In this document: positions 25,571 to 57,471 of the stretch, piece after piece
Position numbering within the stretch: position 1 is the first letter of the stretch
Layout: each line of letters opens with the position of its first letter
Source: a virus
Reading direction: 5' to 3' (one strand)
IMG/VR virus record: IMGVR_UViG_3300021399_000007
Coordinates: 69,874-133,873 of that record
DNA length: 64,000 nucleotides
Notes under the pieces: model-generated
The model's database searches: none
The model's input: the letters and a program-made list of their open reading frames with translations, nothing else
What the model was told of the DNA's origin: nothing
Made by a program: the position numbers and the translations under genes

Positions 25571-26050
25571 ATGATAGCATTACTTTAGCACTATTCTTTA
25601 TCTGATATATTAATCTTCTTGATTTTTCTTGCTCTAGGTATTAAAAGTTTAATTTCTTTTTTTGACTGGGTTTATGGATATATAAAAAGAGCTTTTAATA
25701 TAGAATACTCTAAAAAGAGTGAAAAATAGCAAATTGAGTAGCAGTTACAGCAAGGTAGCGAAACCATAGCAATTTTAACCGCAAATCAATAGGCAACTGA
25801 TAAAGTTCTTTTAGATTTATCCGCAAAAATTGATATGTTAATTGATTCAGATAAAGATGCAATAAAGTCTTATATAACAAAAGAACATCATCATTTCTGT
25901 TATTAGGTTGGATAGATAGACGACTTTAGTTTGGATTGTCTTGAAAAACGTTATCAACATTATACAGATGAAGGCGGAAATTCATTTATTGAACACTTTA
26001 TGTGTGATTTAAGAGCTTTGCCTAAATAGGGTTCTTTTAATGGCAACTAA
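25571..26050 (+). CDS. Late small membrane protein (159 aa) with 7 in-frame TAG codons
   Basis: SD CAAAAGGAGGGACTATAATT-ATG; N-terminal TM ILIFLIFLALGIKSLISFF; Q-rich if TAG=Gln; ends TAA 26048-26050. Confidence 0.4.
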
Positions 26051-26080
26051 TAACAATGGAGAAAAAAGGAGAATTAAAAA

Positions 26081-27955
26081 ATGGCATTGATGTTAAACAC
26101 TTTATATCCACCTATTATGATGGATGTAATCCCTGGTTTTATAAGAACATCAACATGTAGAATATATTTTTCTATATCCGATTATAATTCTGCCAAAGAC
26201 ATAGCAAATGTTCAAGTTGCATTAACAAATGTAAAAACTAACACTTCTGCATTGAATACTGATTTGTACCCCGCAGAAATTAAATTAACTGAATTACTTT
26301 ATGATGACCAAAAGTAGGACGATTATTGTTATTATATAACAATAAGTCCTGCTGATTTAGCGGGCGGGGAATTTTTATTAAATCAATATTATAAAATTCA
26401 ATTACGCTTTACATCAAAAGATGCAGATAGTGTTAGTTTAACTGGAGTTCAACAAATTGCTACTTGGTTAAATAATAATCTTATGTTCTTTTCTTAGTGG
26501 TCACGTGCGGGAATCATTAGAGGGATTTCAAGACCAACGCTTTATATTGATTATTTAGATGATGAGGATGAAGAAGAGGAAGAAGAAAGTGAAAATATTT
26601 CATTATCCGCCCCATTATCAAAAATTACTGGTAGATTAACTTTTGCAGATGAAGGCGAATTAGACTATTTAGCTTCTTATAATGTTAAAGTTTATTTAAG
26701 CAAGCAAGATAATAAATTAATTTTTGATAGCGGTATTCAACATCCAATAGAAGAAAATGAGATTGATTGTAACTTATTATGTGATTTATAGGATTAGCGG
26801 CTGTATATGATAAAAATTAGTTATACTACAAACTATGCTTATAGTAAATAGGAAAACTATATAATACAAGTACGAGTCGAGAGCCAAGACTTAAATCCAT
26901 TCAATCTAACAATCACTCCAACAAGAAATGAAGAGGATGGTTATATAAATCTTCATATTACGATGGATAAAACTAAAGATTTTTCTGATAAACAATTATT
27001 AATTAGAAGAATATCTTCAAAAGATAATTTCTTAATATGGGAAAATTTATATGCTATAGATTAGAGCTTTTCCACATTTGATTGGCAAGACTTATCTGTA
27101 GAAAGCGGGATTTGGTATAAATATGCGTTATATGTAGTAGATTTAAATAAAACTATTTTATATAACCCTATAGAAACAGATCCAATATTGTGCATTTTTG
27201 AAGATATATTTTTAGTAAGTGATAATATTCAATTAAGATTACAATTTAATCCTTCCATAACAAGTTTTAAATATAATACAACTGAATCTCAACAAGTTAC
27301 TTTAGGAGGAAAATTTCCTTATATTAGAAGAAATGGAAATAATTATTATAGAACCTTTTCTATTGGCGGTCTTATTAGTTCTTTAATGGATGAAACTGAT
27401 TGGTATGATTCTTATATTCATCCGCCGCATCCAATATAGGGAGAAGAAGAACAGAAAGAAGAAATCACTTTACCGCATATCAGATTTACTTCTAAATAGG
27501 ATAAATATAAAGATTCTTATGATTTATATCAACAGTATGAATCAGATAAAAATATCTCTAATTATCTTAATCCAATATATGAAAGATTTTTTAGAGAAAC
27601 AGTATATGATTTCTTTTATAAAAATAGTGTAAAATTATTTAAATCTCCAACAGAAGGTAATATATTAGTTAAATTAACCAATATTAATTTTGAACCTCAA
27701 GCTCAATTAGGACGCGTATTATATTCATTTACCGCAACCGCAGTTTAGATAGATGAACCAACTTTTGAAAATTATAAAAAATACAAAATCTTTCCTGATG
27801 ATATATTTGAATATGTTACTGAATCTCCTGCTTTAGAGATCGAATTTGGTACAGCCACAATGGTGCTGGTTATAAATGCAAATGGTGCAAGTCAAAATGG
27901 AAATCAGAATTGGGCATTGCATTTAGAGCCTTATCCTATTAAAGGAGGAGGTTAA
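26081..27955 (+). CDS. Late structural protein (~624 aa, baseplate/tail-type) with ~10 in-frame TAG codons
   Basis: Track fragments 26081-26317, 27188-27439 in one frame joined only by TAG; SD AAAGGAGAATTAAAAAATG; abuts next structural gene. Confidence 0.45.
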
Positions 27956-27957
27956 TA

Positions 27958-29982
27958 ATGCAAACATATCCATATTTAAATGATTTAGCTTTTTTAAGAG
28001 AACTTGATCTATCAAAAGTAAAAGAACAATTTGTGAGAATTAACGTTTTATCTTTTAAAGATGAAAAACCAATAGACCAAATTGAGGGGGATGTAGTAAG
28101 CGGCAATATTACAATAGATGGAAACTCAGCGATGCGGCGAACCGCAAATTTATCTATTGTGGTGAAAAAAGATGAGTATTCTAATAGAGATATTAGAAAA
28201 ATTTTAACTATAAATAAAAAAGTATAGTTATTAATAGGTTTTACTAACACTACTGATAAATATGAACAATATCCAATTTTATGGTTTCCACAAGGAATTT
28301 ATGTAATTATTACTCCTAATATTACTTATAATAATAATGGTATCAATATTTCATTAACATTACATGATAAAATGGCCTTGCTAAATGGAGAATGCGGCGG
28401 AACTCTACCTGCATCTATTACATTTACTGAAATAGAAGATGTTGATGAGAATGGCGAAAGACAAATTTCTAATCCTACTATATATCAAATTATACAAGAA
28501 TTAGTTAATCATTTTGGTGGATAGCAACTTGGAAAAATAATTATTGAACTTGATAAAAAAATAAAAAAGGTAATGCGGTGGACAGGCTCAACACCGCTTT
28601 ACCTATATCAAGAAGCGCTTCCAGATGGTACAATGTATAGTAGTTTTAGTACAAATGAAAATTAGTTAAGAAGGCAAGGAGAAGGGACAATTCAAGAATT
28701 TTAGTACGGATAGGATATAGGTTACATTTTGACTGATTTTATCTATCCACAATAGCTAACTAATAACCCTGGGGAGACCATTGTAAGTGTCTTAGACAAA
28801 ATTAAGAATTGGCTTGGAAATTACGAATATTTTTATGATATTAATGGTAATTTCAGATTCCAAGAGATAAAGAATTATTTGAATAAAACATATGCAACAT
28901 TTTTAATTAATGAAATAAATTCAAATAATTACTTAACTAATTATGCAAATGGAAAATCTGTTTATACTTTTGAAGATTCTGATATTATTCAGTCATATTC
29001 AAACTCCCCGCAATATCAACAAATAAAAAATGATTTTGTTGTTTGGGGTAAAAGAACTACAACAGAAGGAAAATAGATTCCTATCCGCTACCATTTAGCT
29101 ATTGATAAAAAACCTGCGGTTGGAAATTAGTATAAAGTATTTTTCTATACTGATCCTGATGATAACATTTTAAAAGCTAAAAAACCTTTAGAATTTGCTA
29201 CAAGAAGTTAGTTCCCAGAAACCGGAGATGTATGTCAATATTATTATGCGGCAGACACTGGTTTTATATATAAATGGGACGCGAGTGTACAAAGTTATGC
29301 CACGACCCCATATATAATTGAAACAATAGAAGCAAATGATTATAGAACTTAGCTTTATATGTCTGGCGTTGCTAGTTAGCCGTTTGGTTTAGATAGTAAT
29401 TATTATTACACAGAATTAAAAAATGAATGGCCTAAATTATATGATATGCGGCAAGGAAAATTCTTTGATGAAATACTAGATCAGCCCAGTAACATGGATT
29501 TCTTTTTAGATTTTATAGATACCTCTACCGCTATTTCAGAATTTAGTATAGAAAATATTGGTAGACGTACCCTTACAATATCAAATGATGCAATAAACTG
29601 TATTTTCTAGCCTGATAACCCTGATATAGTTATTATTGAAGCAAACAGTGAAGGCGCAGATGATCTTCGAGAATAGTGTTAGCATAGACGACAAGAATAT
29701 TCTCAGGTAACATCAGACATATATTCAAAGCTAGTTACTGGCGGAGTTTTAAGGTCTGCTTATGAAGAAATAAGAACAGAACTTTATCAATATACTGATT
29801 ATAATGAACAAGTCACATTAACCACTTTACCAATTTATTATCTTGAACCTAATGTGCGGATAACAATTAAAAATTAGTAGAGCGGAATTGATGGAGATTA
29901 CATGATAAAAACAATTTCATTACCATTAGATGTTAATGGAATGATGAATTTATCTTGTACAAAAGCACTTGAAAGAATTTAA
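27958..29982 (+). CDS. Late structural protein (~674 aa, tail/baseplate) with ~20 in-frame TAG codons
   Basis: Track fragments 27958-28227 and 28879-29076 same frame; continuous to TAA 29980-29982 then terminator. Confidence 0.45.
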
Positions 29983-30029
29983 CAAAAAAAAATGGCGATG
30001 ATATAAAAATATCATCGCCATTTTTTTTA
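29983..30029. terminator. Bidirectional rho-independent terminator between convergent late operons
   Basis: A9-AATGGCGATGATAT-aaaaat-ATATCATCGCCATT-T8. Confidence 0.65.
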
Positions 30030-32057
30030 TGGTTTTAATCGGATAATATATCCAACTTTATAGTTCGGCCACGAGAGTGGACCAATCCATTTTACGAAAT
30101 GAGCACCTTCGCCCTTTTCTTTGCAGAAGGCATGTCCAGAATCAAATGACAAACCATTACCAAAGTAAATACATGTATGATTGATAGCTACAAAAGTAAG
30201 AATGTCACCAGGACAAAGTTTTCCTTCGTTCATAAGCTGCTTAGGAGTCTTATTGCCTACTTTGATTAAGTCTGCATACTTGCGGAGATCAGCCTACGCG
30301 TGACTATTTAACCAGCGGATGCCGCCTCCTTTTTGTCCATACCAGCTGCATGCAGATGCAGGAAGCCCAGACTATTTCATTGCAAAGCCAACACCGCCCA
30401 TACAGTTTGTATATAACTTATTAGCTTTTCTTGTTTTCCAGAATGTACTTTCACTTACATGTCCGCTGTTGTAATATCTCCAGTCTTTACCAGCTTTTAT
30501 GTCATCTACTAACCATTGATTTAACCGAGCACATGCCGCAAGTAATTTTTGCACTCTATTTAATTTTGGTTTATATACAACTGTTTTTGGATTTTTTAAG
30601 TCATAAACTCTAAATCCCCAATTTTGATTAGCCTTATTTTTAGCGTTACTTAAGTATTGATAAGCACCAAGTTGGTATTGAGATTCAGACCATCTTCTAC
30701 GAACGACATATCTATCTACTATTGTTGCGGCGGGAGTCGTTGTTACGGGCGCTTGGACTGGTGCCGCCGTAACCGCCTTCACCTATGGATAAATTTGATT
30801 ACCATTCTAATCATATACTTTTAATCCTTTAGCTTTTGCTCTTGCTATTGCATTAGCTTTAATTTCGTAAGCATTATCTTGGTTAATATATTTTCCATTT
30901 TTATAGTCTTGTGCAACTCTATACCAGACAGTTTTTGGCTGTGGGACTGGTGCCGTCGCCCCCGCTTCTACATCTAATTTTGCTAAATTATTTTCTTTAA
31001 TAATACGAAGCACCTTCTCTTCATAATTAGGATCAGTGCAATACCCCTATGGATTACTAGCTGTTCCAGTTCCAATTCTAATTGCATGAATAACCGCTCC
31101 AGGATCTGTCATACCTTTAATGCGATTATATTTATAACCTTTATTATTTTTTACATGCAAAAGGAACATCTAATAATCTTCAATGCAGTTTTTATAGTCC
31201 TTATAAACTCTAAAGTTATCATTTTTATAAATTAATTTACCATTAACATATTCAGGAGTCATTTTAGAAAAACTTGTACCATTCCAAACTGTATAATTAG
31301 ACCAACTACTATTGATTAAATCAACTTTCATTCCAAGAAGATTATTTCGTTTTGTTAATTCAATAGCATCAGATCCTAATCCATAACCATTCTAGAGGCA
31401 GCACTGTGCGGCGACCACTGATGGTAAAATTTTTGTTTGTTTATAAAGATCTACACAGATCTTAGATACTTTATTAATAAAGTCTTCTTTGCTTTGAGGG
31501 ATACCAGAAGCTGCGGTTGTTGACGGTGTTGTACCTGCATTTCCGCCCTTCACCCTCTCAAGAAATTCATTCCAAGTCCAAGATGTTTTATATTTATTAT
31601 TATGAACATATGGAGCTGGGCAGACTTTATTTACAATATCATAATGTCTTAATACATGGTCTATTGGGATTTTTAAGTCCTTCATTAATTTTTGAACAAG
31701 CCATACCGCAGCTTCTTGTGTCTCTTTTGTAAAATACCAATATGGGTCACTTGCTAATCCTTTGTTGCCATCACAGTGACAACATAATTCAATGCTAATT
31801 GTATTAGCATTTCTTGCGTATGGATGCTTTTGAGCATATATACCAGCTGTACCGACTGCCCACACAATTGCATCATGGGAACATCTTTGGAAAATCGTTC
31901 CATCCCAATAAATTGTATAGTGGGCACCAGTACCATTTTTTGATAATTCATAATTTTGACCATCTACTCCTAAATAGTGAATGGCTATATATTCATGTGT
32001 ATTTCCAAATTTTGGCACATATACTTCTGAAATTTTATTTACTATTTTATATGCCAT
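30027..32057 (-). CDS. Multidomain endolysin (676 aa): N-acetylmuramoyl-L-alanine amidase (Amidase_2) + glucosaminidase + cell-wall-binding repeats + NlpC/P60; 7 in-frame TAG codons
   Basis: Four track fragments (31392-32057, 30807-31013, 30372-30782, 30027-30233) share one frame, separated only by TAG; motifs AIHY..ISIELCCH..HYDIVNKVCPAP; NGYGLGSDAIELTKRNNLLG; repeats YRVAQDYKNGKYINQDNAYEIKANAIARAKAKG / YVVRRRWSESQYQLGAYQYLSNAKNKA; NlpC/P60 TNCMGGVGF...HTCIYFGNG; SD GGAGAAAAAAT-ATG. Confidence 0.65.
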
Positions 32058-32145: not shown

Positions 32146-32159
32146 TGGGTCTTTAGTTA
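32146..32159 (-). promoter_or_regulatory. Late intergenic motif AACTAAAGACCCA (copy 1; ~90 nt upstream of endolysin ATG)
   Basis: Plus strand tgggtctttagtta; one of 6 copies, all at minus-strand gene junctions. Confidence 0.45.
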
Positions 32160-32326
32160 CTTACTGGCTTATTGTTTTGGGCTTTTTCTTCCATCAACTT
32201 CATTCGTTCTTCAGCACTTTCAGAAAGCATCTTTTCTATGTCCTTCTTAATAAACCAGTTGATAACATTACAAGTTATAGTAATAATTTCACACACAATG
32301 AAAATGATAAAAATCGTTTTTACCAT
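32153..32326 (-). CDS. Small membrane protein (57 aa)
   Basis: Minus ATG after motif copy GGTAACTAAAGACATGAAGTGGGGGTGTCAAC; MVKTIFIIFIVCEIITITCNVINWFIKKD... Confidence 0.3.
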   Translation of the reverse strand: MVKTIFIIFIVCEIITITCNVINWFIKKDIEKMLSESAEERMKLMEEKAQNNKPVSN

Positions 32327-32344
32327 GTTGACACCCCCACTTCA

Positions 32345-32357
32345 TGTCTTTAGTTAC
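32345..32357 (-). promoter_or_regulatory. Late intergenic motif variant AACTAAAGACA (copy 2)
   Basis: Plus tgtctttagttac. Confidence 0.35.
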
Positions 32358-32358
32358 C

Positions 32359-32487
32359 TTAATTGCGAATATCAGCTAACAGCTTGTCGATGTCATCAAG
32401 TAACATTTCGTAGTCCTTTGGGGACAAATTGTTAAGAGCCTTGTCCAATAATTCCTCGATTTCCTGTTCATAATCATATACAGACAT
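32359..32487 (-). CDS. Small acidic protein (42 aa)
   Basis: MSVYDYEQEIEELLDKALNNLSPKDYEMLLDDIDKLLADIRN*; ATG 12 nt after SD AGGAGA following motif copy 3. Confidence 0.3.
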   Translation of the reverse strand: MSVYDYEQEIEELLDKALNNLSPKDYEMLLDDIDKLLADIRN

Positions 32488-32506
32488 ACTCGATCTCCTA
32501 TTGTTT

Positions 32507-32519
32507 GGGTCTTTATGTC
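32507..32519 (-). promoter_or_regulatory. Late intergenic motif variant ACATAAAGACCCA (copy 3; contains stop of GH16 gene)
   Basis: Plus tgggtctttatgt. Confidence 0.4.
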
Positions 32520-33628
32520 ACAATAATTTTTGTAATTGCGCCAATACCATTTTTTGTTCCTGCGAGAATATACGAAGTGCCAACTGTTTTTGCTGTAATC
32601 ACTCCTGCATCACATTCTGCCACAGACGCATTAGTTGAATACCAATTTATATTTCTGTTCGAAACGGTATCCGGTGAAAAAGTTGGATACATAAAGTATT
32701 GAGAACCAGCTTCAAGCGTCAATTCATCAGGAAGTATTATTTCAGATGCGCTAACATCACTACTAATTCCCTGTGGCGCATAAACCCTAACCCAATCAAC
32801 ATACATTTTCATCTCGTTTACTATTGGAGTCCCAAATTTTATAGCAAGATTAATCAGTATGTGTAACGGTTTGCTAAATGCTTCTATATCTTCACTATCG
32901 TAATCGGATAATTTCATTCTGTTTCCAACTTGCACATTGTCAATATAAAACGTAATATAATCACTATTTATATCGACAGCGTATGTATGCCAATCGGATG
33001 ACGTTACATCATAGTCGGGGCTTACTTGAAAAAGATGCTGATAAGGGTCGGAATTACGATTAGGCCAGACTGTAGAGATTGGTCTTTTCGAATTTCCGGG
33101 AATAAATTCAATGATATCAAGTTCTCCACAAACAGGCCAACTAACAGAACCATCATACCGTTCGCTATACGTTCCTGATTCGTTTGGAGCGTCTTTGTGA
33201 TTTAACCCCATAAGCCAGAAAGCAGGGAAGGCGCCTACAACGCCGGGAAATTTTATTTTTGCTTCGAACCTTCCATATCTCCATCCGTTTTTTCCTGCCG
33301 TGACAACTCTTGCGCTTGTCCACGTTTTTGATCCAACAGTTTCTTTTTTGGCTGTTATCACTAAACAGCTATTTTCTACACTAGCATTTTCGCTTTTGTA
33401 GTATTGCTCTTCACCACCATTATTCATCACTCCGATATCAAATGTCCATGCGTCTGCATTTAAAGCATTTCCATCAAAATCATCCTCAAAAACCACATGA
33501 CGTCCGGAAATATATTGGTTCAGGCTTTCGTACACGTTTGCCCCTTGCTTATTATAGCCATACATACACTCATCCCCATCGACCGAGTATGCTTTCAGCG
33601 GGACTTGTCCATCTTTTGTGTATATCAT
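32513..33628 (-). CDS. Glycoside hydrolase family 16 (beta-glucanase/laminarinase-like) with C-terminal Big_2 Ig-like domain; likely tail-associated depolymerase
   Basis: GH16 catalytic motif GELDIIEF (E-x-D-x-x-E); C-terminal VITAKTVGTSYILAGTKNGIGAITKIIV. Confidence 0.6.
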   Translation of the reverse strand: MIYTKDGQVPLKAYSVDGDECMYGYNKQGANVYESLNQYISGRHVVFEDDFDGNALNADAWTFDIGVMNNGGEEQYYKSENASVENSCLVITAKKETVGSKTWTSARVVTAGKNGWRYGRFEAKIKFPGVVGAFPAFWLMGLNHKDAPNESGTYSERYDGSVSWPVCGELDIIEFIPGNSKRPISTVWPNRNSDPYQHLFQVSPDYDVTSSDWHTYAVDINSDYITFYIDNVQVGNRMKLSDYDSEDIEAFSKPLHILINLAIKFGTPIVNEMKMYVDWVRVYAPQGISSDVSASEIILPDELTLEAGSQYFMYPTFSPDTVSNRNINWYSTNASVAECDAGVITAKTVGTSYILAGTKNGIGAITKIIVT

Positions 33629-33643
33629 GCTATCACCTCTTTT

Positions 33644-34405
33644 TTATAACGAAATCCCCATTATTGTCTGCACCTCTTCGTCGGTGAGGTATCTGTCGTA
33701 TATATTACACAAGTTAACATCACCAAGCAAAATATTGGAGTATGTTTCACCAGATATCTGTCCTCCTAATTTTGCGGTTCTGGTTGCATCTCCAAGTATT
33801 GTAATTGTTTTAGTGCTATCTACAACCTTGTTGTTATCTATATACAAAATGGCTCTGTACTCTTTTGTGCTTGAGTCATATCTGCCTGCATACCTCACCC
33901 TATGAGCTGATAATTGATTGTAATTTACGTCACCGCTCTCTGAAGTGTTAAGGTCGCATGTTAATTTCTGTGTTCCGGAATATGTAAACATCATCACGCT
34001 AATGCCATTATACTGATCTGGATTAGTGGATAAGGAATTAATTCCATGCAGAATCCTTCGCTGTGTGGCACTTGTATCAGCATCAAGTTCAGCATCGACT
34101 AAAACCGTGAAAGTATTTGTGGAACCAAATGCAATATCTGTGTCAATAATATCGGTGCCCTGCCGAATGCTTACCGGTGCGTCTAAGTGAAAAATCAATG
34201 ACGGATCGACTGGTTCTGGCGGTTCCGGAGCAGGATATAACGCATTATAAAGATTGTTATAATATGTACTACCATTCTGGTTCTGATAAACCACATTTTG
34301 CGCAATATCTAATAATGCATTTTTCACTCCTTCCGACAAGCCGCCCTTTTCAACAGCGTCAATCAAATTCTGTGCCTTACTACCTTCCCAAATACTTACT
34401 GCCAT
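33644..34405 (-). CDS. Tail fibre/receptor-binding protein (253 aa)
   Basis: Track ORF; Asn/Thr/Gly-rich beta-type sequence in tail-fibre cluster. Confidence 0.45.
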   Translation of the reverse strand: MAVSIWEGSKAQNLIDAVEKGGLSEGVKNALLDIAQNVVYQNQNGSTYYNNLYNALYPAPEPPEPVDPSLIFHLDAPVSIRQGTDIIDTDIAFGSTNTFTVLVDAELDADTSATQRRILHGINSLSTNPDQYNGISVMMFTYSGTQKLTCDLNTSESGDVNYNQLSAHRVRYAGRYDSSTKEYRAILYIDNNKVVDSTKTITILGDATRTAKLGGQISGETYSNILLGDVNLCNIYDRYLTDEEVQTIMGISL

Positions 34406-34420
34406 AATATCCTCCTTTCG

Positions 34421-35041
34421 TTATGCCGCTGTATAAGTAACTGTTGTTTCCAGTGTCGTAAGATTTGTTACTATTGTTAATACAGCACCAGTGTTCAATG
34501 TCCGTGTTTCCGTAATGGTTGTTGCTCCGTATGTGAAAATATCTGAACGGATAATCGTATTTCCATTTTTATGTTCTACCTTAAAAACTGAACCGTTAGT
34601 AAATGTATACGTCTGAACAGTATTAGGTACATTGTCATCAAGGAGAAGCAAACGTTCATTTAGTTCACTGACCTCCTCGGTCAATTCCGTATAATTGGCG
34701 GTCAACGCCGCTCCAGTGGCAGCCGCATCAGCTGCGGCGCCTTCTATTGTTAAACTTGAATCTACTATTACAGCGCTTCCGACAGGAGTGACATGAGTAT
34801 TCAGCCAATTAGTCACATCAGTACTAATTTCATCATTTAAATATTGATCTAGTTCATTATCGTCAATTTTATCATTTAACTGTGCTTGCACAGTTCCCTT
34901 AGACATATCTATATTACCTAATATATCTACTAGATTGTGAGAATCATCCCATAAAATATATTCAGCTAACGTACTTACTGGTATCTCATCTGAATAAGTA
35001 CCATCATCATACTTAATTCGAATAGCTGTTAATTTATTCAT
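34421..35041 (-). CDS. Tail fibre protein with conserved N-terminal anchor domain (paralog of 37751-38650)
   Basis: MNKLTAIRIKYDDGTYSDEIPVS...NWLNTHV...SSLTIEGAAADAAATG...ELNERL mirrors METLSTIKIKYKDGTYSK.IPIS...DWLDTNI...SSLSISGAAADAKKTG...ELNERI. Confidence 0.5.
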   Translation of the reverse strand: MNKLTAIRIKYDDGTYSDEIPVSTLAEYILWDDSHNLVDILGNIDMSKGTVQAQLNDKIDDNELDQYLNDEISTDVTNWLNTHVTPVGSAVIVDSSLTIEGAAADAAATGAALTANYTELTEEVSELNERLLLLDDNVPNTVQTYTFTNGSVFKVEHKNGNTIIRSDIFTYGATTITETRTLNTGAVLTIVTNLTTLETTVTYTAA

Positions 35042-35451
35042 TGATTTCTCCTTTCTAATTTATGCTATTTAAATAATCTAATATATTCATGATTAACACA
35101 CTAACATGCGGTTTTAGTCCTTCCATTTTGAAACTATGGATTTTTTTCACAATATTGTGTGTATTGTTCAATATCATCTAATATTTGTTCAAAATAATCT
35201 TTACTGTGACCCACATTAGAATATAACTCATCTGAGAATCTTAAAATGCGGGTTCTTGCGGTTGTTGCTTTATCCTACTAAATAGATGCTTTTAATTTAT
35301 CTATTTTTTCATTAGTTTCCGCAACAGCTTTTAAAATATCTTTTGTAATATCTTTTTTCTAATCATTTCTTTTTATAATAAATTGTATAAAGGCAAAAAT
35401 GCCGCCGCTCCCGATTAGGAGAGCGAGGATGTTGAGGATTGATATTTGCAA
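35038..35451 (-). CDS. Small membrane + coiled-coil protein (137 aa; holin-like guess) with 7 in-frame TAG codons
   Basis: SD GGAGGTGATTAATAT-TTG start; QISILNILALLIGSGGIFAFIQFIIKRND[TAG]KKDI...; ends TGA overlapping ATG of 34421-35041. Confidence 0.35.
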
Positions 35452-45700: not shown

Positions 45701-47811
45701 AAAGTAAAGTTGGTTTCCGCAGATAAACTTAACCCTTTATATCTTACTGTTAATTTTATTTGATTTCTTTGTTTTTGAATATAATATCTTTGTGAAATAT
45801 TATAAAACAAAGTTGGTTTATCATCATAATATCTATAATTTTCATCTTCATCAAAGTCTAATCCATTTTCCTATGAATCGACTAACATAGTATCTGTTTT
45901 AGGAAATTCCCATTTAATTCTACAATTATTTATATTTTCCAAAATATCTTCCTAAATAGGTTGACCTAAATTGTCATATATTGTAAAACTAAGCGGCAAA
46001 ATTTCTTGCGGCGAGTCCAGACTCTTGCTGTTTGGAGCAACGCCATTTTCATTATATTGAAAAACTTGTGTACCATTATTAATAACAAGAGAATAAAGAT
46101 CTTCTCCACTTAAAGTATTTTCTAAAGTTATTGATGGAGTACCTAATAAAATACCATTCTCATTAACGACAGTACATTTAAAGGTTCTACTATCTGTAAT
46201 ATCATTGATTTGTACATTATAGATTTTATTGCCTTCTACTCTTTGAATAGAATTAAAAGCTTTAACATTATTCTATAATGTAGTTAAATTCTCTTTCTAC
46301 GCATTTTCAAACTTAGTTCCTGCAATAATTTCATTCTAGAGATTCGTTAATGCAGTAACCGCTGCAGTATATGCAGTATTTTCTGATGTAGTTTTTGGTA
46401 ATTCTTCAAGCACCTAATTGTCAGATACATACGCCCAATAGTAATGATAGTTCTGAGGCTATGTTCCATTAACCTTACAAGTTAAAGTTGGATGTCCAAT
46501 GTCATAATAAAATTTTGTACCATTACTTGATTCTATCGTCAACTATGGTGTTTCTGCACATAAATTCTTAATATTAACCTATTTAGATGCGGTGTTTCCA
46601 TTATAAACAACTACAACTTTAATTTTATTGTCACTTGCGGTTGCCGCGGTGAAACTCATTTTATATATATTCCCCGCAGGTACCCATTCTATAATAGCAT
46701 TAGGATCATTAGGAACAGTAGGATCGGCATCAATAATATTACTTTGATTTAAACACTACCAACCTCTCCCTAAATGTTTATTATAATATCTATTATTAGC
46801 CATGACTTGATTATTTTCTCTTCCCCAATAGAAAGAGAAATTTTTATCAATCGCTACTTCTTTTCCTTTAATTCTAACTTTTGCGGTAATTGTTTTATAA
46901 TCAGCTGTTGTAGAATCATCTTTAAAAATAAGCCCTTCTGGGACAGAAAGAGAAATAGAAAGTCCATTTAATTCAGATTCAGATAATTTTGAAGTTCCAA
47001 AAAACTTCAAATTAGTAATTTCTATATCCCCTGTTTCTAATCGTCTATCTGTAATAACTCCATTAGCACCAGGGAATTCCTTATTGAAAATCTCTATAGA
47101 CTCAATACGAATAAAATTCTATCCATCGATTTTAAAATATTGTGATTGTTCTGTCCCATATGCCAATCTATATGGGTTATCTTTCATGTTATCTTCATTG
47201 ATTGTATATGAACGAATAACCTCTTGGTTAGAAGTATTATCTAAAAATCTTAAATTATAAGTGATACCATAATGACCTCTAGTTTGTCTTTCAGGCGCGA
47301 TAGAGGTTTTAAAGGTTGCGGCAACCTTAATAGAAGAAGATCGTCTTATATAATAAGCTAAGGCCAGATCATCTAATGAAATATCACTAGGTTCTCCATA
47401 TTGATAAATTGTATATTTATAATCTCTATTTAATGTATTTAAATAAAATTTGTCAATATCATTAACATTAATGCAATTAGTACCATTAATATCATAAACT
47501 GCCTAATTGTCTAACTAACTAATATAACTTACCCCAGACCGCGTAGTTGAACTTAAAATAGTCTTATCTTTTGACATATCGTTGCCTGGAACAAGAATAT
47601 TAACATAAGAGCCATTAGTATATGTTGTATCTATATTATTAGAATAAGCATATATAATAGCATCTTGATAGCGGCATCTATATTTTCCGATAGACGCGTC
47701 CTCACATGAAATAATCTGCGCTTGGATTGTTGTATTATAATTAGCTTTTTCTACTTTTGAATTTGCTAATAATTCAATAGCATCCAAAACAGTCTAATTT
47801 ACATTCATGTA
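42763..47811 (-). CDS. Giant tail spike/fibre protein (~1682 aa) with C-terminal peptidase S74 intramolecular chaperone domain; ~25 in-frame TAG codons
   Basis: Track fragments 47515-47787, 46756-47010, 44662-45810, 43345-43767, 43093-43308 share one frame; S74 motifs DTSSDRKLKDI and GFIAQDV; SD AAGGAGGAAAATTATAC-ATG at 47811. Confidence 0.5.
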
Positions 47812-48114: not shown

Positions 48115-51100
48115 TTAATTTCTTAATGCTCTTTGAATTGCCATATTTGCAAGTTCATAGAATGCATCTTCAATTTCTTTTCTAGTATTAACATTTGGAA
48201 ATACTGCTTCAATATTTACAGTTTGTTCAATACTTTCACCATTAGTATTATCAAATAAATTACTAAAACCGCCTTTGATATTATTTGCTCTTGAGTATAA
48301 AGAACCTTCTAATGAAGTCTTTAATTCCTCTAAGATGATAGCCATAGTGCTAACTCGCTCATTTAATCTATTTATTCGCTCATCACTTGATAATGAGTCC
48401 ATTGTAGAATCTTCAAAGATTTGCATCATTCCAGATAATTGTGAACCATACACTGTACTATCGGCTTGATCCAGTCCATTAAGAACCTGATCTTTTGCAG
48501 CATCCCAAGTACCAAGCCCAATAGACTTATCATCTATTTTATTAAAATCATTTGTATCATTTGCGGATTTCAGATTTGTTTGCTGAAGGAGATCATGTAT
48601 GGTGCCACTTGTAATCATTGCATTTCTAGTAACTTCTTTATAAGCATTTGCAAGAGAATGAATGTAATCTCTTAAATTAGCCACTTTTGTCATTTCTTTA
48701 TCCATGTTTGTCATAAGGGCGTCATTCGCGGTGATTAATTTACCAGTCTATTCAACTAAAGCGCTAACACCTTCTTTTGTCTTTTCAAAATCAGTTCCTG
48801 CGGAGTCTGCAGTTTCTTTTACATCATTTTTATATTCTTTAGATGCTTCACTGACTTTTTCAAAAGCCTATTGACAAGTTGGAACAAAACCGCCCTCTTT
48901 AGTCATAGCATCCATCATTGCCTGAATACCACTATCCCAAGTAGGAACTAAATCTTTCATTATTAAGTCTTTTTCTTCAATGGATAAATTCTTATAATGT
49001 TTTGCATCTTCATTATTAAGTAACGCATAATCTTGTAATGCTGAATCAGTTAAATTACCTCTAATAACTTCATTCTAAGCAAGTTTACCATTAATATATT
49101 CTGCATACTGCTGTTGTAATAATGCAGCCTATCTAGCTTGATCTTCCTAACTCTTTGACATATCAGACATAATTGCTTTATACTAAGATTGAAAATCTTT
49201 CCAAGCCTGTAATGCATCAGATAAATTAGAATTATATCTTTCTTTATCAAAGTTATATAAATCATTATTAAGCTAAGCTAGTCTTCGCTGAGTCTATAAA
49301 ATATCATCATCATCCGCAATATATTCATATGAATAGTTACCTTGAGAATCTCTCTTTAATCTCATAGTAGTTTTTGCTGCTTGTGCATCTTCTAATGCAA
49401 TTCTAGCTTGCTCTAATTCCAACAGCTTCTGAGCACGCTCGACATCATACTCAGTTAACTTATCTTTATTTTCAAGATTAGTTAATTGTTCATCCATCAA
49501 TCGTTTTAATGCCTGTTGATTTTTTAAATCTTTAGTATCATTAATAGCCTTATTAAACTATCCTCTTAAATCTTGAAGCGCAAAAGCAGCATTAATAGTA
49601 TCATAATACTCGTCTGCATTTTTATTCAACAGATCCCATTCTTTTTCAACAAAATCAGAGCCTTTTCCATCGCTAATTCTTCTATCTAACTCATCAAAGA
49701 TTTTATTAATAGAATTAATGTATTTGTCTTGAATAGTTTGAATAGATTGTTCAATCATACTATTTAAATTGCCAATAGTCTAACGATAATGTTGTTCAAA
49801 CTTTTCTGCGGCATTGGTATCTCCCGCATCAACAGCGGCCTGCCATCTTTCTTTCCACCACGCCGCCTGTTGCCTTAAGAAATCTATTTGCTTATTAGAA
49901 TTTTCATTAAGCTAAGTATAATATTTATCCATCGCCTCATAGTTTTGATCACCATATAACAATGATAATAAATCCATATCATGAGTTAACAACTATTCTA
50001 CAAAACCATAATTCTACATTTGTTTATTAAATTGATTATCAATTTCATCAATAGTTGAGAGATATGCCTAATCAACTTCATCAATAGAAGATAACATCCC
50101 TTCTAACTGATCTTGTAATGATGCTAAATCAGTTTTTAAATTTTCTAAGGCTTTTTCTTTATCCTTACCATAAATGTCAGAACTTTCACCTCTATTAATT
50201 TTTTCAATTTCCGCTTGAGTTTTGATTAATTGATTTGTTATTGTTTCAATCGAGTCTGCTGTATCACCGTTACCAAAATATGAGAAGAAATCTTTACTAC
50301 TCTTTGCGGCGTCCGCAAATATTTTATCAAAGTTGCTATCTTTAACAACATCAGCTTTATCTATTACATTACGATAAAAATCATTCCAATCTCTTTGAGC
50401 TGCGCTCATATCAAGATGAACATCAATTGTTGTTCTAAATCTCTAAACATTTTTTTCAATTCTTTCTTGCTCTGCTTCATTAATATCATCTTTTGAGTCT
50501 TCAATCGCTTCTCTCAACTCGTCATAATTTTTTATTTTGTCTTTTAATTTCTATAGACTATCACTAGCTTTATTAACCTGCTTATCAAGTTTCTATAATC
50601 TTTCTTTTAATTTATCTTTTTTATTTTTATTTGTTTCTTTATTATATTCTTTAACTAACTTATTATATTTATCAGTTTTCTTATTAACCTAATCTTGCTG
50701 TTTACCAACTATTTTCATATAATTGGTAATATTGCCATAAGCATCAAAAGTTACTCCAAGCCCTTTTAATACTTTTTGCTGAGAAGCTAAATCTTTCTCT
50801 TGAAGTTTTAATTTTTCCTCAAGTTTTTTCTTCTGCTCTTCTAATAATTTTGATTGCTATCTTAAATTATCTAAAAGATCTTTACCATATAAATGATCTT
50901 GCTTCTTTTGTGCGCGGTCAAGGTTTCGATTAATTTTTTCAATTTGGATATTTATATCATGATAAATATCTCTTTCATCTTCAATCTTCTTTTTCTTATC
51001 TTTTTTTCCTTTATCAGGTTTTGCAGTAGATCCTTTACTGCCTCCACCTTTTTTGCCTCCGCCGCCTCTTCCGCCACCACCGGAACCAGCGCGACGAGCG

Positions 51101-54100
51101 GCACCTGCAGAACCGCCGCCATTTGAAGCTTGTTTAAACTTAAAACCGCCGCCAGAAGATTTATGAGCAGATGTTACTTTTAAAGAAAAGGCAGAATTTT
51201 CTTTAGTATCAGTAGTTGTAGTTGTTCTTGGAATATACTCACTATCATAAACAGTATACTAAATAGGAGCTGTACGAACCTCCATATCCTAACCACGACC
51301 AGAAACAATAGGAACCTAACCTACTCTTGTCTAAGGAATAAGTTCACTATCAAATCCAGTGATAGTTTTATTCTAAGTTCCCTGATTTTTTTGCTCAACA
51401 ACCTCAGCATCAATACCCATAGAAGCCAAATAATCAGTTGCTTGCTCAGCAGTCATATGGGCAGCATTTACTAAATCTCCTAATTCTTGTAAAAAATTAT
51501 CTTGATTTAAATCTGCGCCAATTTCAAGGGTTTGAAAGTTCATAAGATCTAATGAATTTTGAACAGTATCTAATGATGACATAAAGTCTTCATACATACC
51601 TTCATCCCATTTAATATGACCAATGATATCCTGTTGTGCGGCAATCATTAACCTATCATATGCCTAAGTGTCACCATCAATGGCGGCTTTCATATCATTT
51701 AAATTCTCTGTATTAGATAAAAAGTCTTCTGATAAAGAGCCTCCATCTAAATCAAGCAAATCAGCATAAGCCTCTCTCATTTCTGACATTGCTTGTACTT
51801 GATCTTGAATAGAACCACTTTCTAATGCTTTTGTCCAATTTTTATAACTTTTTACAACATTTTGACAAGCATCATCAAATCTTAATATTTCTTCAGAAAG
51901 TTTTTCAGCACCTTTTCTATCTGTCTATAAACCATTATGTAATTCTTCTGTTTCATCAGCAACGTCTTGAATATGATCTGCCAAATTTTCCCACTAATCA
52001 GTATCAACATCTGCATCTAATTTTGTTTCGCTGATTTGCTGTTGTAAGGCTAATCTTTCTTTTCCTTTTTCTATAAGCTAAGTCTAAACTTGATTTAATT
52101 CTTCATCAGCTTCTGCCTATGCTTTTTTAGCAGATGCAGCATCTGATTCAGCTTGCATCACTTCACCTTGACTAAATTGTCCTTCATTTTCAACTTTAAA
52201 ATTTGCTTTTGCATAATCCTATTGACTTTGTTTTTTAATCTCTTCTAATTCAGTTTTTCTATTCTATAACTATTGAATATGTTTTTCATTCTCCGCCAAT
52301 AATAGTTCTTTTGTTACTTCTAATTCAGACTATTTTGCAGCAATTATTTGATTAAGAACGTCAAGGTATTCTTTTGAATTTACTCCATTCTAGGCTGCTT
52401 CATTTAAAATAGAATATTCTTTCCCAACTGTAAATAAAGCAGACATTTGTTCATCGCTTAGCTCTCCACCTTTAGTTAAAGTATCTCTTGCGGATGTTAG
52501 TGTAGAAACCTCTTTTTTATCAGTTTGAAAATTATCAAAAGAGGAACTAGTTGATGTGACTCTTTCAACCTATTTTTTAAAATCTTCTGCATTAAAAGTA
52601 CCATTTTTTAATGCTTCAGAAATTTTATTAATATTATCAATAATCCATTGATAATCTGTTTCCACTCCAAGAGAAGCGAATAACTCATTTAAAGTTTGTA
52701 AATGTCCTAATGCCTAAGAGTCTTTAACAGCGGCTTGCGCATTTTTATAATCTTTTAATTTATCCTTTGCACTATCTACTGCTTTTTCTAATTTACCAAG
52801 ATTTTCACTTTCTTTATATAAATTTAAAGCAGCCTATTTAGTCTAATTGGAATTAAAAGCTAAATTATTTGCTTTTGCAAACTATTCTAATTTATCTTCT
52901 GTTAAATTAAGTTGTTTTACTTCCTATCCAAAAATATCATTCCATAAAGCTTGATATTCAGCTGGACTAATTTTAGATTTTAACTACTATAATTTTTCAA
53001 AACTAGTAGCAAGGATTGATAACCCTTCTGCTCTTTGCATAGAATCAGAAGTTGTTAAAACTGCGTCTTCAAAATCTTTTAATAATTGTTCAGTATCTTG
53101 AAGTTTAGAAGGATCAATCTAACCCTCATATAAATTAGATAATAAATTAGTTTTTTCTTTATATGATAAATCTTTTCCAGATTGAACTTTCTGAATGGCA
53201 GAAGAAACTTTATCAAAATTTTTAATAATATTATTAACATTATTATCTTGGGCATCTTGAGCAAGGAAATCTTGAATCCATTGTTTTGCTTCTTCAAGAG
53301 TTTTAAACTATGGTTTAAATTTATTAATTTGCTAATTTATTTTATTTAATTGTTCTTCAGAAAAATTCTAAGTTAACCAATTTTGTAAAAAATTTTTAGC
53401 ATGAGTATCTGTATATCCAGAAATACCTTCTTCAATAGAATCATTTAAAGTTGAAGCAATTTCTTTCCCCAAAGAGGTTCCTGCAGTAAAGACTTTAAAA
53501 ACTTCTCGAGCTCCATCTTCAAATACAAAATTTAAATTATCTAATCCATAAATAGATTTAATTAAATTAATTATCATATCTTTTTGCTCTGGATTATTTA
53601 ACATCTATTGAATCTATGGATTATTAAGCCAAATATTATTTATAGACTATATAATTGCATCTGAAATCTGTTTGACACTTTGATCATTATTAGCAAAAAT
53701 TTCTTCAATATCTTTAATACTTTCATTTTCAGCACTTTTTATTATCTAACCGCTTTGGACTAAATTATCATAAATCAATTTAATTTTATCTACCATTGAT
53801 TGATAAACCTAATCCACAGGGATGTCATCGGTTGAGCTAGTAATAGTATCTATTAATAACATTAATAAATCTTTTTGATTCCAACCAACTTTAATAAATT
53901 CTTCTTGTAAATTATCATATAATTCTCTATTTACATCATCAATGCTAAAAGCTCTTAAAAGCGCATCGGCATCTTCTTCAGTGTAATAAGTTTTTTCTTC
54001 TTGCTTTTTTGTTGCATCATCTAAAGCTTGTTTCTTCTCATCAACTGCTGCTTGTAATCCTTTTAAAATTTCATCGGTATCACCAAGCATATTAGAGAAA

Positions 54101-57100
54101 ATTTTTTCATAATCACTATCTAAAAGCCCTTCACCAAAAGCATTAGCGTCTTTTAAATATTGTATAATTGTAGAACCCGATTTAGCAATTCTTTTCTAAA
54201 AAATATTATTTAAATAAGCTTCTTCGCCTTTACTAACACCGTCACTAATTACTTTATTATATTGCTAAATTAATGCTGAATATTTTGTAAGCTAATTTGC
54301 TAATTCTTCATTTTCTTCTGCTAATCCTTCTGAAAAAGTAATTTGAAAAGCTCTTGTTGAAAATCCTGCAAAATCATTAAATTTTCCTTGATAACTTGCA
54401 TGATCATTTTTATACTACTAAAGATTTGCATTAGCTTCTCTCAACTATGCATCTGTATTATAAACAAGATTTTGTTTCTATGATTTTTCTTTATCATGTC
54501 TTGCAGTAACATTTTCTAAAACATTCTCAGTTCCGCCTAAAGCCGCTTTATCAGCCTACCTTTTAGCCTACTTTAAAACTTCAATAGTTTCTTTTAATGC
54601 ATCTTGTCCGCGAACAATGGCATGACCTTGCTCATCATAACCAACTATAACTGCTTGATTATATTCAGCAAAAGTATCAGTAATTTCATGATATCTATCT
54701 TGTTCATCTTGAGTTAATTGATCTAAATTTACTCCATATGCGCCTGCTTTTTCAGACAATTTCTAATATTCTTTTGCAACCTACTACAAATTAGCAATTT
54801 GAGCATTTTTAGATTTATTATTCTAATTAGATTGATTGATGGCTTCATTAAATTCTTCAACTTTCTATTTAGTTGTTTTAAAATGATCCTCAATTTTATC
54901 CCATATTCCAGTAGCATCTAATAATCCTTTAGCAACTGACATAATTCCGTTACCTATCATAGTAACGACCATGCCAGATCCTGGAAGAATAGAATTTGCA
55001 ATAATACCTGCAATACTTGGCAAGCTTCCTTGTAAACCACTCCAAGCTGCATTTACTTTTTCTGCAGAATTAGCAGTTTCATCTGTGGCCTTGCTAATAG
55101 CACCTAAAATTGAAGTTGTTGCAGTTAATCCAGCCGTAACATTTTGAACTACTGTTCTTAAATTAATAGCATTTTGGCCTCTTTTTATTCCATTCTCTAA
55201 AAGTTTCTAAGATTCTTTATTTTGAGCTTTTAATGCATCAACTTCACCGCTTAAATGACGATCATATAATGCTTTTGCTTCATTTGCTTTACCCAATAAA
55301 GTATTTTGATATTCTAACTATTTAGTCATCATTTCAGATAAAAATTTTATATCCTCTGTGGTGATTGCCTAGTTATTTATCATGCTATTATATATATTAG
55401 ATGCTTTATTCCTCTACTCTTGCGCTAATAAAGAACTATGAGTTAAAGACTATATTCGATTTAAAGCCTATTCATTTTCTACATAAGGAAGATATCCCTA
55501 TTGAACTGTTTCAACATATTGTCTTGTTTCTTCAACAACATCATGTAATAATTGTTTCTGATTATTAATTTCAAGAGTCTGCTATTCAATTAAATTTAAA
55601 ATCTCACTATATGTAGTAAACTCATGACCTGAAACTTCATCCATTACAGATTGATAATTTTCTATTAATGATAATTGTTGAGTTCGCATTCCAATTTGCT
55701 ATTGTAATGCAGTTAATTCATTATAACTTTCTTGTGTTAATCCTTTTCTAACCGCATAAATTTGTTGATAAATTTCTGCCTATTTTTTTGCAGCTTCTAC
55801 CGCAGCCTATTGATAATTACTATCATATTGACCTTGTGAAATACGTTGGGATAAAATTGAATCTGCAACTTGATTTTTTAAATTATCAATATTTTTATTA
55901 TTAATAAAAATATCAAACTTATCTTTGGCTGACATAATGGCATCACTAATTTGCTTATTAAAAATATTAGCAAGTGTGGAACCAAAAGTCATTAAAACGG
56001 GAATCCCTCCCCCAAGACCATCAATAAAATTATTAAATCCTTTTAAAACATCTCCAAAAACATCTACGAACCCTTTTACTGTTTTTTCATCAAATAAAAT
56101 ATCATAAGTACGTTCAGCTTCCGTACCTAATTCAATCATATGTGCTTCAAGACTCTCTAAATATCTATCATTTTTTTCATTTAAAGTACCTTGAGCATTT
56201 AAAGATGTATTTACAGATTGTAAATATTTATCCCAGTTATCAAAAAGAGCAATAAGATTATTATACTGACGTTGACCTGCCATAGTTTGAGCAAGGTTTA
56301 TCTGTTGCTCTCTTGTTAAACTTTCCCAACGTCCACCAATCTCTTCAATAACTTCACCAGTGTCTCTTAAATGACCATTAGCATCTAATACATTAAATCC
56401 TAATGCCGCCATTTTACCTGAATAATTACCTAAACTTACCTAAGCCTCATCTGCGCCAGTCTTAATATCATTCATTCTGGCGTAAATAGTTTTAAAAGCC
56501 ACACCGACTGATTCAGGCGCTTGTCGGGTCGTAGCAATAACAGTAGCAATCTGACCATTTAACTGATCAATATCAACACCCATAGCATTAGCGGTTGATG
56601 CTACTTTACTAATAGCAGTAGCCAACTATCCCATATTAGATGCGGTTGTATCTGCAACTGCCGCCAATTTATCAACATACTCTTCAGACTATTCTGCCGA
56701 AACATTGAAACCATTCCAAACAGAAGTCAAATAGTCAATCATATCAGATCCAATACCAGTAATATTTTCAGCTTTTAAAGTAACTGAAGTTCTAGCTTGA
56801 ACCTAATCATCACTCAAACCTTGCTGATAGAATGCTAAAGCGGCTTTGGTATAATCAAGAGTCGATCTACCTAAATCCTTTGCTGCAGAATTCGCAGTAT
56901 TCGCAAATCTTTGCATCTAATCAGCACTATCGCCAGTAACAATTCGAATATCGGTTAACGATCTATCCAAATCTTTTGCATAGTAATAAGCATTTTGAAT
57001 TGATTGAGTTATATTATTAACAATACTAGATGTAATACTCCATTTAACAGTATTCGCCATTGAAGTAGCCATACTGTCTAATAATTTATTACTTTGTCTT

Positions 57101-57471
57101 AATTGAACATTTGTATTTAAAATTTGTGTAGCAACGTTATTAAACGCCGCCTGTCCAGCCGCTCCAACCTGAGAAAAAGCCTGTTGGACTTGACTAATAG
57201 AGCTGCCGGAATTTTTTAAAGTCTTATTAAATTGTTCAATATTAAGAGTATTTAATTTCGTATTGAAGGCTTTCTTTAATGCATTTTCTACATTCGTCGC
57301 CTATGTTTTTACTTGTCTTAATGTTTCTGTTGCTGAGGCGGCGTCTGTATTATTAATCTTCATTACATCACTGATTTTTAATTTCTGTATCTATTGCAAT
57401 GAAGATTTTAATTGGTTCAACCCTTCTTTTTGAATGTCAAAACCAACTTGATATTTAATCTGATTCGCCAT
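48115..57471 (-). CDS. Tail tape-measure protein, apparent single ORF of ~3118 aa with ~90 in-frame TAG codons
   Basis: Eleven track fragments from 48115-48714 up to 56440-56625 share one frame; adjacent fragments separated by TAG where checked (e.g. 56440-56442); SD TTAAGGAGATAAAAGGAT-ATG at 57471; TM-like GIPVLMTFGSTLANIFN; Gly-rich block. Confidence 0.5.

Follow-up and report, generated by a model that had tools for sequence, protein, structure and literature searches.

Probable reassignment of TAG to glutamate in a large siphophage and a clade of its relatives

A 64,000-nucleotide stretch of viral DNA (IMG/VR record IMGVR_UViG_3300021399_000007, positions 69,874 to 133,873; hereafter the window, numbered from its first letter) contains many genes that are interrupted by TAG, and this raises the question of what TAG means in this genome. 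The window has the strand-block layout of a phage and a base composition of 33% G+C. A preliminary description of its central part (25571-57471) had recognized TAG recoding and pointed to translation table 15, in which TAG encodes glutamine. Here we provide evidence that the window quite probably belongs to a large siphophage in which TAG encodes glutamate, only TAA and TGA serve as stops, and TAG would be decoded by an amber-suppressor transfer RNA (tRNA) with the anticodon CUA that derives from tRNA-Glu.

TAG is a sense codon throughout the window and is nowhere needed as a terminator, a conclusion of which we are practically certain. With TAG read as sense rather than as a stop (table 11), the summed length of stop-to-stop open reading frames (ORFs) of at least 100 amino acids rises from 15,614 to 24,435 amino acids, the longest ORF reaches 3,120 codons instead of 836, and a simple gene model reaches a coding density of 89% over the whole window. 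The statement in the preliminary description that every gene ends in TAA or TGA holds for all 65 confident genes (46 TAA, 19 TGA, no TAG), and 185 in-frame TAGs are spread over 26 of these genes. The comparison of the two gene predictions that it had called for gives, for ORFs of 60 amino acids or more, a coding-strand density in 25571-57471 of 0.525 under table 11 and of 0.949 once TAG is read as sense. Alignments to related-phage ORFs cross 136 distinct TAG positions of the window, and TAGs also lie inside the domain matches obtained with endolysin, PhageMin_Tail and Peptidase_S74 models. In the same homologue alignments across the window we found no supported in-frame TAA or TGA; these codons were crossed only at gene ends, off-frame or antisense. 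Collinear fragments do keep one frame, as had been noted, and the tape-measure frame of 3,118 codons contains 84 TAGs and no TAA or TGA; the fragment counts originally given for the endolysin, the spike and the tape measure (4, 5 and 11) were too low, since these genes carry 7 (8 fragments), 24 and 84 TAGs, respectively. The two motifs described as running across TAG are present, GYS[TAG]NSI in 5419-6174(-) and SFT[TAG]IGRKY in 19538-20275(+), and homology searches with TAG-sense translations bore out the proposed identities of the endolysin, the tape measure (PF10145) and the S74 fibre (PF13884).

The use of TAG is strongly uneven. The ratio of TAG to GAA and GAG combined is 162:589 in 25571-57471 and 23:637 outside it (odds ratio 7.6, p = 3e-26). 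Counted among glutamate codons, TAG accounts for about a fifth, and up to about a quarter, in genes for the tail and for lysis, and is infrequent in other genes. The genes of the endolysin and of two small membrane proteins each contain 6-7. The earlier view that the late genes are fragmented by TAG is correct for tail and lysis genes and fails for the minus-strand genes at 32.1-42.8 kb, which have 0-2 TAGs with the exception of 35038-35451 (6 TAGs). Early and middle genes, which had been described as mostly free of TAG, are indeed poor in it, yet outside the late block 11 genes of 43 have at least one TAG.

Which residue TAG specifies can be read from homologues. We searched for homologues of the endolysin, which matches PHROG endolysin and amidase families and whose homologues carry PF01510 and PF01832, with X placed at the TAG positions of the query, so that the query could not bias the residue counts. 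In the resulting set of 119 homologues, mostly standard-code and including proteins from Lachnospiraceae genomes, TAG column 222 is E in 115 of 119, column 296 is E in 80 of 118, and column 588 is E in 58 of 105 and K in 32. We take the E at column 222 to be the catalytic glutamate of GH73. The context of this column, AAQCCL[TAG]NGYG, aligns with AQAALESNWG of Listeria Auto (3fi7), AQAIVESGWG (7qfu) and AQAALESGWG of FlgJ (5dn5). At the N-terminus of the tape measure (150 cluster representatives), five of seven TAG columns are E in 126, 115, 98, 90 and 75 of about 150 sequences. Of the TAG positions in the tail or baseplate protein, residue 139 aligns with E in 48 of 56 relatives and residue 556 in 55 of 59, and the TAG column of the HEXXH protein at 38671-38985 contains E in 11 relatives, TAG in 4 and nothing else. 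The 16 TAGs of the DUF5048-family tail protein correspond, in a relative of 70% identity, to GAA or GAG at nine positions, to Ser or Asn at four, and to CAA, GAT and TAG at one each. Only one endolysin homologue has Q at all seven TAG sites; it is 95% identical to the window protein, and its Q may be a database artefact. In a public protein collection, the protein P0121 (L002 2331-4355) has all 16 of its TAGs rendered as Q, so that 16 of its 42 Q are TAG codons. Because this collection translates TAG as Q, its Q counts are contaminated (its E counts are not), and we therefore carried out a codon-level comparison on fetched DNA. Homologue columns opposite E of the window show 9-11% Q, which probably reflects the same database translation.

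For the codon-level comparison, window proteins were aligned by tblastn to 61 related IMG/VR loci, the subject codons were read, Glutamate was the best residue over these columns and won 2,000 of 2,000 bootstraps, with penalties relative to it of 20.9 nats for Gln, 25.8 for Lys and 28.5 for Asp. Held-out sets of 63 true Glu columns gave Glu-minus-Gln scores with a mean of +40.6 (range +28.8 to +52.1), and held-out sets of 63 true Gln columns gave a mean of -43.1 (range -54.9 to -24.6). The codons themselves show the same pattern: CAA makes up 5% of the codons of relatives at window TAG columns vs 45% at window CAA columns. Three groups of relatives, described below, share mainly GAA at the window TAG columns, where TAG occurs only within the Glu type; TAG also occupies 5% of the cells of Glu-type relatives at window GAA columns, and at window CAA columns it occupies 12% of Gln-type cells and essentially never appears in the Glu type. 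On these comparisons of related sequences, TAG very probably encodes mainly or solely glutamate in this phage.

The same classifier assigned 20 loci together with the window to a Glu type, whose TAGs align with E or TAG of the window, and eight loci (L029, L030, L039, L045, L047-L049 and L051), which serve as a positive control, to a Gln type with margins of 8-29 nats over Glu; 27 loci use the standard code and have no in-frame TAG. Deposited proteins of the Glu-type phages contain systematic E-to-Q errors. In a neighbour-joining tree of a tail protein, the Glu-type genomes fall in one clade, within which TAG positions are shared in related-genome alignments. Members of this clade include IMGVR_UViG_3300021256_000064 and IMGVR_UViG_3300021400_001206. 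Gln-type genomes, among them IMGVR_UViG_3300045988_161236, occupy two or more further clades; the phage phAss-1 groups with one of these, and standard-code genomes lie next to another. As this tree was built from one protein and carries no support values, the count of independent origins is provisional. It is likely that a clade of siphophages with genomes of roughly 130-145 kb, comprising the window and at least 20 of the 61 relatives, reads TAG as glutamate with TAA and TGA as stops, and that glutamine was adopted independently at least twice elsewhere in the family; as part of this same likely scenario, the meaning acquired by TAG would follow from which tRNA was converted, either a tRNA-Glu body that is rejected by GatCAB or a tRNA-Gln-like body with a U1-A72 pair. 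TAG load varies widely inside the Glu clade, and a subclade of about 68% identity (L001, L005, L007, L014 and L016) has 1-5 TAGs where the window genes have dozens.

The candidate decoder is a tRNA with the anticodon CUA, located in an array of 14 tRNAs. The array precedes the late plus-strand genes, in a block of that strand that is mostly free of TAG. The CUA tRNA folds as a canonical cloverleaf, carries G18G19, and has a T-loop of sequence TTCGAAT and a variable loop of 5 nt; a C1-G72 pair is followed by a G2·U71 wobble, the discriminator is A73 and no CCA is encoded. Its D-arm is GUGG-AGUGGUUUAA-CAC and its anticodon loop CUCUAAA, and a tRNA-Met lies 6 nt downstream. We dropped the 8-bp acceptor stem and the label 'Pyl' given by ARAGORN for the Rfam register, 18984-19057; several neighbouring tRNAs share the flanking T...AT. 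Homologous CUA tRNAs are found in related IMG/VR contigs, where they again adjoin tRNA-Met, and at 28 metagenome loci, and strict DNA patterns for the suppressor matched 1-2 contigs in IMG/VR. The 11 distinct sequences of the suppressor family, one metagenomic subtype of which begins GGCCCGTT, share one cloverleaf in which 10 of the 20 pairs covary by compensatory change and the anticodon loop is invariant; 10 of the 11 retain G2·U71. The CUA tRNA is under purifying selection.

To place this tRNA among bacterial ones, we took the D-arm motif GGTTTAANAC with a UUC anticodon after it as a search pattern for species-representative bacterial genomes. Hits were mostly from Bacillota, and all 95 of the 95 tRNAs with this pattern are tRNA-Glu; among 627 other tRNAs of the same loci, the D-arm motif occurs in five tRNA-Asp only (0 of 16 Gln, 0 of 16 Trp). 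A typical retrieved tRNA-Glu, GGCCCGTTGGTGAAGCGGTTTAACACA...CTTTCAC...TACGGGTCACCA, has G1-C72, G2·U71 and A73, and because the acceptor stem was absent from the search pattern, its agreement with the suppressor is independent evidence. The D-loop of the suppressor is also of the tRNA-Glu type, with extra U's after G18G19 that resemble the U20B feature; its anticodon is CUA and not the UUC or CUC of a Glu-type tRNA. The CUA suppressor thus demonstrably resembles a Bacillota-type tRNA-Glu in its body, and appears to have been derived from one.

A second suppressor-like tRNA in the array, of ochre type with the anticodon UUA, has 33% G+C, an all-A/U anticodon stem, G73 and weak pairs from 1-72 to 3-70 (a U·U mismatch, G·U and U·G). 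It seems to be paralogous to the CUA tRNA, and examination of two related tRNA arrays revealed no counterpart. The recoding of TAA that this tRNA might suggest was excluded, since all TAAs crossed by homologues are gene ends, off-frame or antisense, and TAA ends 46 of the 65 genes. The fourteenth tRNA, at 20958-21031(+), was missed by ARAGORN and scores 50.2 bits with Rfam; by eye it has a GUC (Asp) anticodon, an irregular D-arm and likewise a G2·U71 wobble. Between the tRNA genes lie three mutually related ORFs of the phrog_5018 family (18512-18934, 19538-20275 and 21293-21730, all on the plus strand, with 1, 4 and 1 TAGs), which look like homing endonucleases; the second has a C-terminal match to an HNH-endonuclease family (phrog_15471) in the stretch that had earlier been called NUMOD-like.

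In the mechanism that we propose, the phage CUA tRNA, originating from a Bacillota-type tRNA-Glu, would decode UAG after being loaded with glutamate by the glutamyl-tRNA synthetase (GluRS) of the host. GatCAB is known to need U1-A72 and to reject the extra D-loop base U20B of tRNA-Glu (PMC2811023); the suppressor has no U1-A72 and has the enlarged D-loop of tRNA-Glu, and GatCAB would accordingly leave its glutamate unconverted to glutamine. The resulting Glu-tRNA(CUA) would then compete against release factor 1 (RF1) at UAG. We lean slightly towards this combination of a tRNA-Glu-derived suppressor, charging by host GluRS and escape from GatCAB. If the host uses the indirect pathway, one synthetase would yield Glu or Gln depending on the tRNA body, which would explain both reassignments in one phage family. 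The CUA tRNA of phAss-1 has U1-A72, G73 and an encoded CCA. A generic pattern of CUA anticodon plus T-loop gave no suppressor from Gln-type relatives among the matches listed, so phAss-1 is the one case that ties the tRNA type to glutamine. Given that TAG makes up about a fifth of the glutamate codons of tail and lysis genes, full-length late proteins would require the suppressor, and this need could delay or gate their synthesis. The 'timing gate' on late genes that the preliminary description had put forward is compatible with the distribution of TAG and the position of the tRNA array, as well as with the model that Borges et al. put forward for recoded phages (preprint 10.1101/2021.08.26.457843); we regard it as a tentative proposal, somewhat more doubtful than not. 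No phage RF2 gene or RF1 antagonist that could help against RF1 was present among the window proteins scanned, with about half of the genome outside the window.

Several observations weigh against glutamate as the meaning of TAG or against the route proposed for it. The score of the TAG columns, +20.9, is below the range of true Glu columns, and hence either the sites that TAG occupies are under weaker constraint or glutamate is not the only residue inserted. Some conserved TAG columns are K, W or Q in relatives, and TAG columns with a strong consensus outside the Glu clade are few (E 8, K 4, Q 1). The bacterial tRNA-Glu set was fetched through the shared D-arm, so that only the acceptor-stem agreement is independent; in that stem the window tRNA has C1-G72 where tRNA-Glu has G1-C72, and nearest-neighbour typing against 174 phage-encoded tRNAs puts Trp, Glu, Ser and Gln all at about 0.66-0.68. 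Bacterial GluRS normally reads U34, U35 and C36 of the anticodon, and a CUA tRNA is therefore not an obvious substrate for it. For the host, the Lachnospiraceae endolysin homologues and the kinship to Enterococcus phages do no more than suggest the Bacillota; about a third of sampled Firmicutes have glutaminyl-tRNA synthetase (GlnRS) and about two-thirds lack it. Finally, the window covers 64 kb of a genome of probably ~135 kb, and a phage synthetase or release factor could lie outside it.

Under ordinary code 15, TAG would be glutamine and the glutamates of homologues would reflect tolerated GAG-to-TAG (E-to-Q) substitutions. Every published study of recoded phages that we found assigns glutamine, the distant relative phAss-1 is reported to do so and our classifier weakly agrees, public databases render these genes with Q, and a few TAG columns do have Q in relatives (for example, residue 112 of 25571-26050, Q in 24 of 41). 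Such an account is nevertheless very improbable given the scarcity of CAA at TAG columns compared with CAA columns, a Glu-minus-Gln score far from the range of true Gln columns, and the presence of TAG at near-invariant and catalytic glutamate positions; the same method does return glutamine for eight other relatives, and the suppressor has a tRNA-Glu body with A73 and C1-G72 rather than U1-A72 or a weak pair and G73. Table 15, which the preliminary description had proposed to test, thus gives way to glutamate, which is favoured by both the codon-column inference against homologues and the suppressor tRNA. A less distant possibility, which we still consider unlikely, is mixed decoding, with TAG read mostly as Glu and also as Lys or Gln through misacylation of the CUA tRNA or wobble of the UUA tRNA at UAG. 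This would fit the score below the pure-Glu range, the several columns with conserved K in relatives, and the fact that the UUA tRNA scores as a real tRNA, with G73 and position 1-72 unpaired. Lys is 25.8 nats behind Glu overall, however, and the low score is equally explained by TAG at less constrained sites; in addition, no UUA tRNA turned up in the related arrays that were examined, and a functional one would also read the TAA stops of 46 of the 65 genes.

We find the two remaining explanations hardly credible. If TAG were still a stop, the late genes would be pseudogenised, fragmented or completed by rare readthrough, and table 11 does give a run of short ORFs. This reading is refuted because the frame is conserved: one frame of 3,118 codons has 84 TAGs and no TAA or TGA, the pattern persists across many related genomes with TAG positions shared in the clade, full-length domain matches cross TAGs, and a dedicated CUA tRNA is maintained by purifying selection. 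Pyrrolysine or another non-standard residue is suggested by the ARAGORN label 'Pyl', which any CUA anticodon receives; the canonical cloverleaf with G18G19, TTCGAAT and a 5-nt variable loop differs from the short GG-less D-loop and 3-nt variable loop of tRNA-Pyl, no pyl genes are among the annotated window proteins, and the TAG columns match glutamate.

The locations of the suppressor tRNAs and of the genes that carry TAG are given in Table 1. In the possible holin, TAG at residue 153 is a sense codon, as every homologue extends past this C-terminal position. The tape measure matched 14,343 cluster representatives, the top ones being 2,500-3,500 amino acids long.

Table 1 Suppressor tRNAs, TAG-bearing genes and neighbouring features of the window
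Feature	Position	Strand	In-frame TAGs	Details
Early/middle gene	5419-6174	-	2	
Early/middle gene	14352-15158	+	5	
tRNA array, 14 tRNAs	16016-22192	+		Interleaved with homing-endonuclease-like ORFs; 13 by ARAGORN, one more by Rfam
Amber-suppressor tRNA, anticodon CUA	18984-19057	+		ARAGORN; Rfam tRNA model 64.7 bits
Early/middle gene	19538-20275	+	4	
Ochre-type suppressor-like tRNA, anticodon UUA	20350-20422	+		ARAGORN; Rfam 51.3 bits
Early/middle gene	22534-23115	+	4	
Small membrane protein, possible holin	25571-26050	+	7	
Tail or baseplate protein	26081-27955	+	9	624 aa
Tail protein	27958-29982	+	16	674 aa; DUF5048 family
Endolysin	30027-32057	-	7	676 aa; Amidase_2 and GH73 glucosaminidase
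Structural and fibre genes	32153-42773	-	0-2 each	Higher G+C, 0.33-0.41
Small protein, N-terminal membrane segment	35038-35451	-	6	137 aa; phrog_37604 match crosses TAG positions
HEXXH protein	38671-38985	-	1	TAG 15 residues past the motif
Tail fibre/spike	42763-47808	-	24	1,681 aa; C-terminal Peptidase_S74 chaperone domain (PF13884)
Tape measure	48115-57471	-	84	3,118 aa; PhageMin_Tail (PF10145)

Some features of the surrounding genes deserve mention. In 14352-15158(+), 17909-18106(+) and 10361-10585(+), TAG lies 1-4 codons ahead of TAA or TGA, and in the first of these it is the penultimate codon; such TAGs may once have been terminators, with translation now continuing to a nearby backup stop. 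At 32513-35041(-), three TAG-free genes (371, 253 and 206 amino acids) stand head to tail in one frame, with one TAA and about 5 codons between neighbours, and one homologue alignment just grazes the first TAA. Their G+C is 0.37-0.40, vs 0.28-0.31 in the TAG-rich genes, and one contains an Ig-like domain of a type found in tail and fibre proteins. This region may be a receptor-binding module recently gained from a standard-code phage. Directly upstream of the tRNA array, 16146-17093(+) encodes a full-length, TAG-free sigma-70 family factor (regions 1.2, 2, 3 and 4), which might switch on transcription of middle or late genes. A TAG-free gene at 59940-60767(+) encodes a Thg1-like 3'-5' nucleotidyltransferase of the tRNA-His guanylyltransferase family (PF04446, phrog_4717), with a metallophosphatase nearby at 58193-58951; Thg1-like enzymes can repair or edit tRNA 5' ends, and any relevance to mismatched phage tRNAs such as the UUA tRNA is speculative. 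Two further TAG-free proteins form an unusual combination for a phage: one of 830 amino acids with a Major Vault Protein shoulder domain (PF11978; 60819-63311(+)), and one of 503 amino acids (23789-25300(+)) that matches the phrog_850 'RNA-binding protein' and has a homologue with DUF2828 and DUF7788.

If glutamate is indeed the meaning of TAG, the generalisation that phage recoding is limited to TAG-to-Gln and TGA-to-Trp is broken, and GluRS, or the GluRS/GatCAB pathway, would also be open to hijacking. Gene callers that use code 15, and the protein databases that follow, would then silently place Q for E in tail and lysis proteins, a catalytic residue included, with consequences for structure prediction, the mining of endolysin enzymes and metaproteomic searches. 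Standard-code, TAG=Gln and TAG=Glu members within one phage family constitute a natural experiment in which codon reassignment can be compared directly, and a natural amber suppressor derived from tRNA-Glu may be of use for genetic-code engineering in Gram-positive bacteria.

The window probably represents a large siphophage from a family with genomes of 130-145 kb and tape measures of about 3,000 amino acids. A megablast search of 30-50 kb against 50,697 phage records gave no match, and thus no close annotated relative in that collection. A tail gene of 95% identity is present in the ENA assemblies ERZ28614710, ERZ27280590 and ERZ920186. More distantly, the 27958-29982 protein is 30.6% identical by tblastn to phAss-1, and identities to Enterococcus phages are about 27%; with phAss-1 and the Enterococcus EF1-like siphophages the window has in common the tail module, a tape measure of ~3,000 amino acids (3,149 in phAss-1) and tRNA arrays, which marks it as a distant member of the same group. 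phAss-1 itself is a 136-kb gut phage annotated with TAG=Gln and CUA suppressors. Code-15 phages with TAG-to-Gln include crAss-like phages, Lak phages, 'Agate' and phAss-1 (Borges et al., 10.1101/2021.08.26.457843; Peters et al., PMC9523058; Babkin et al., PMC10607447). Among phages whose code differs from that of the host, Borges et al. reported only TAG-to-Gln and TGA-to-Trp, and argued that GlnRS and TrpRS alone are easily hijacked (10.1101/2021.08.26.457843). In the Lak study, some TAGs aligned with E and were explained as GAG-to-TAG substitutions under a Gln code. As in code-15 phages, the TAGs of the window cluster in structural genes and lysis genes, termination is left to TAA and TGA, and a tRNA(CUA) is present in a phage tRNA array with no synthetase gene seen nearby and a presumably standard-code host. 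Unlike in those phages, TAG appears to encode Glu rather than Gln, and in contrast to Gln-like suppressors (U1-A72, G73) the window tRNA has G2·U71, A73 and a tRNA-Glu D-arm.

The suppressor resembles the tRNA-Glu(UUC) of Bacillota in its D-arm (GUGR-A..GGUUUAA-CAC), A26, its acceptor GGCCCG/CGGGUC with G2·U71, and A73; it differs in the anticodon CUA, in the C1-G72 of the window copy and in its 5-nt variable loop. The indirect Gln-tRNA pathway (non-discriminating GluRS plus GatCAB; PMC2811023) yields Glu or Gln from one charging enzyme depending on U1-A72 and the D-loop, and matches the Glu-type and Gln-type suppressors of this phage family, on the hypothesis that the host uses that pathway. 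We found no report of TAG=Glu in a phage or prokaryote in the literature searched, which leaves out most subscription journals. To our knowledge, no NCBI translation table for a prokaryote or virus has TAG=Glu with TAA and TGA as stops, and TAG=Glu is known only from two nuclear codes of eukaryotes, 30 (peritrich ciliates) and 31 (Blastocrithidia), in which both TAA and TAG encode glutamate. The window would share with them the assignment of a UAR-family stop to glutamate through a tRNA-Glu-type suppressor; in contrast to these cellular nuclear codes, it keeps TAA as the main stop, and belongs to a virus whose code presumably differs from that of its host. Stop-codon recoding in phages has already been well described, and glutamate at TAG would be the new part.

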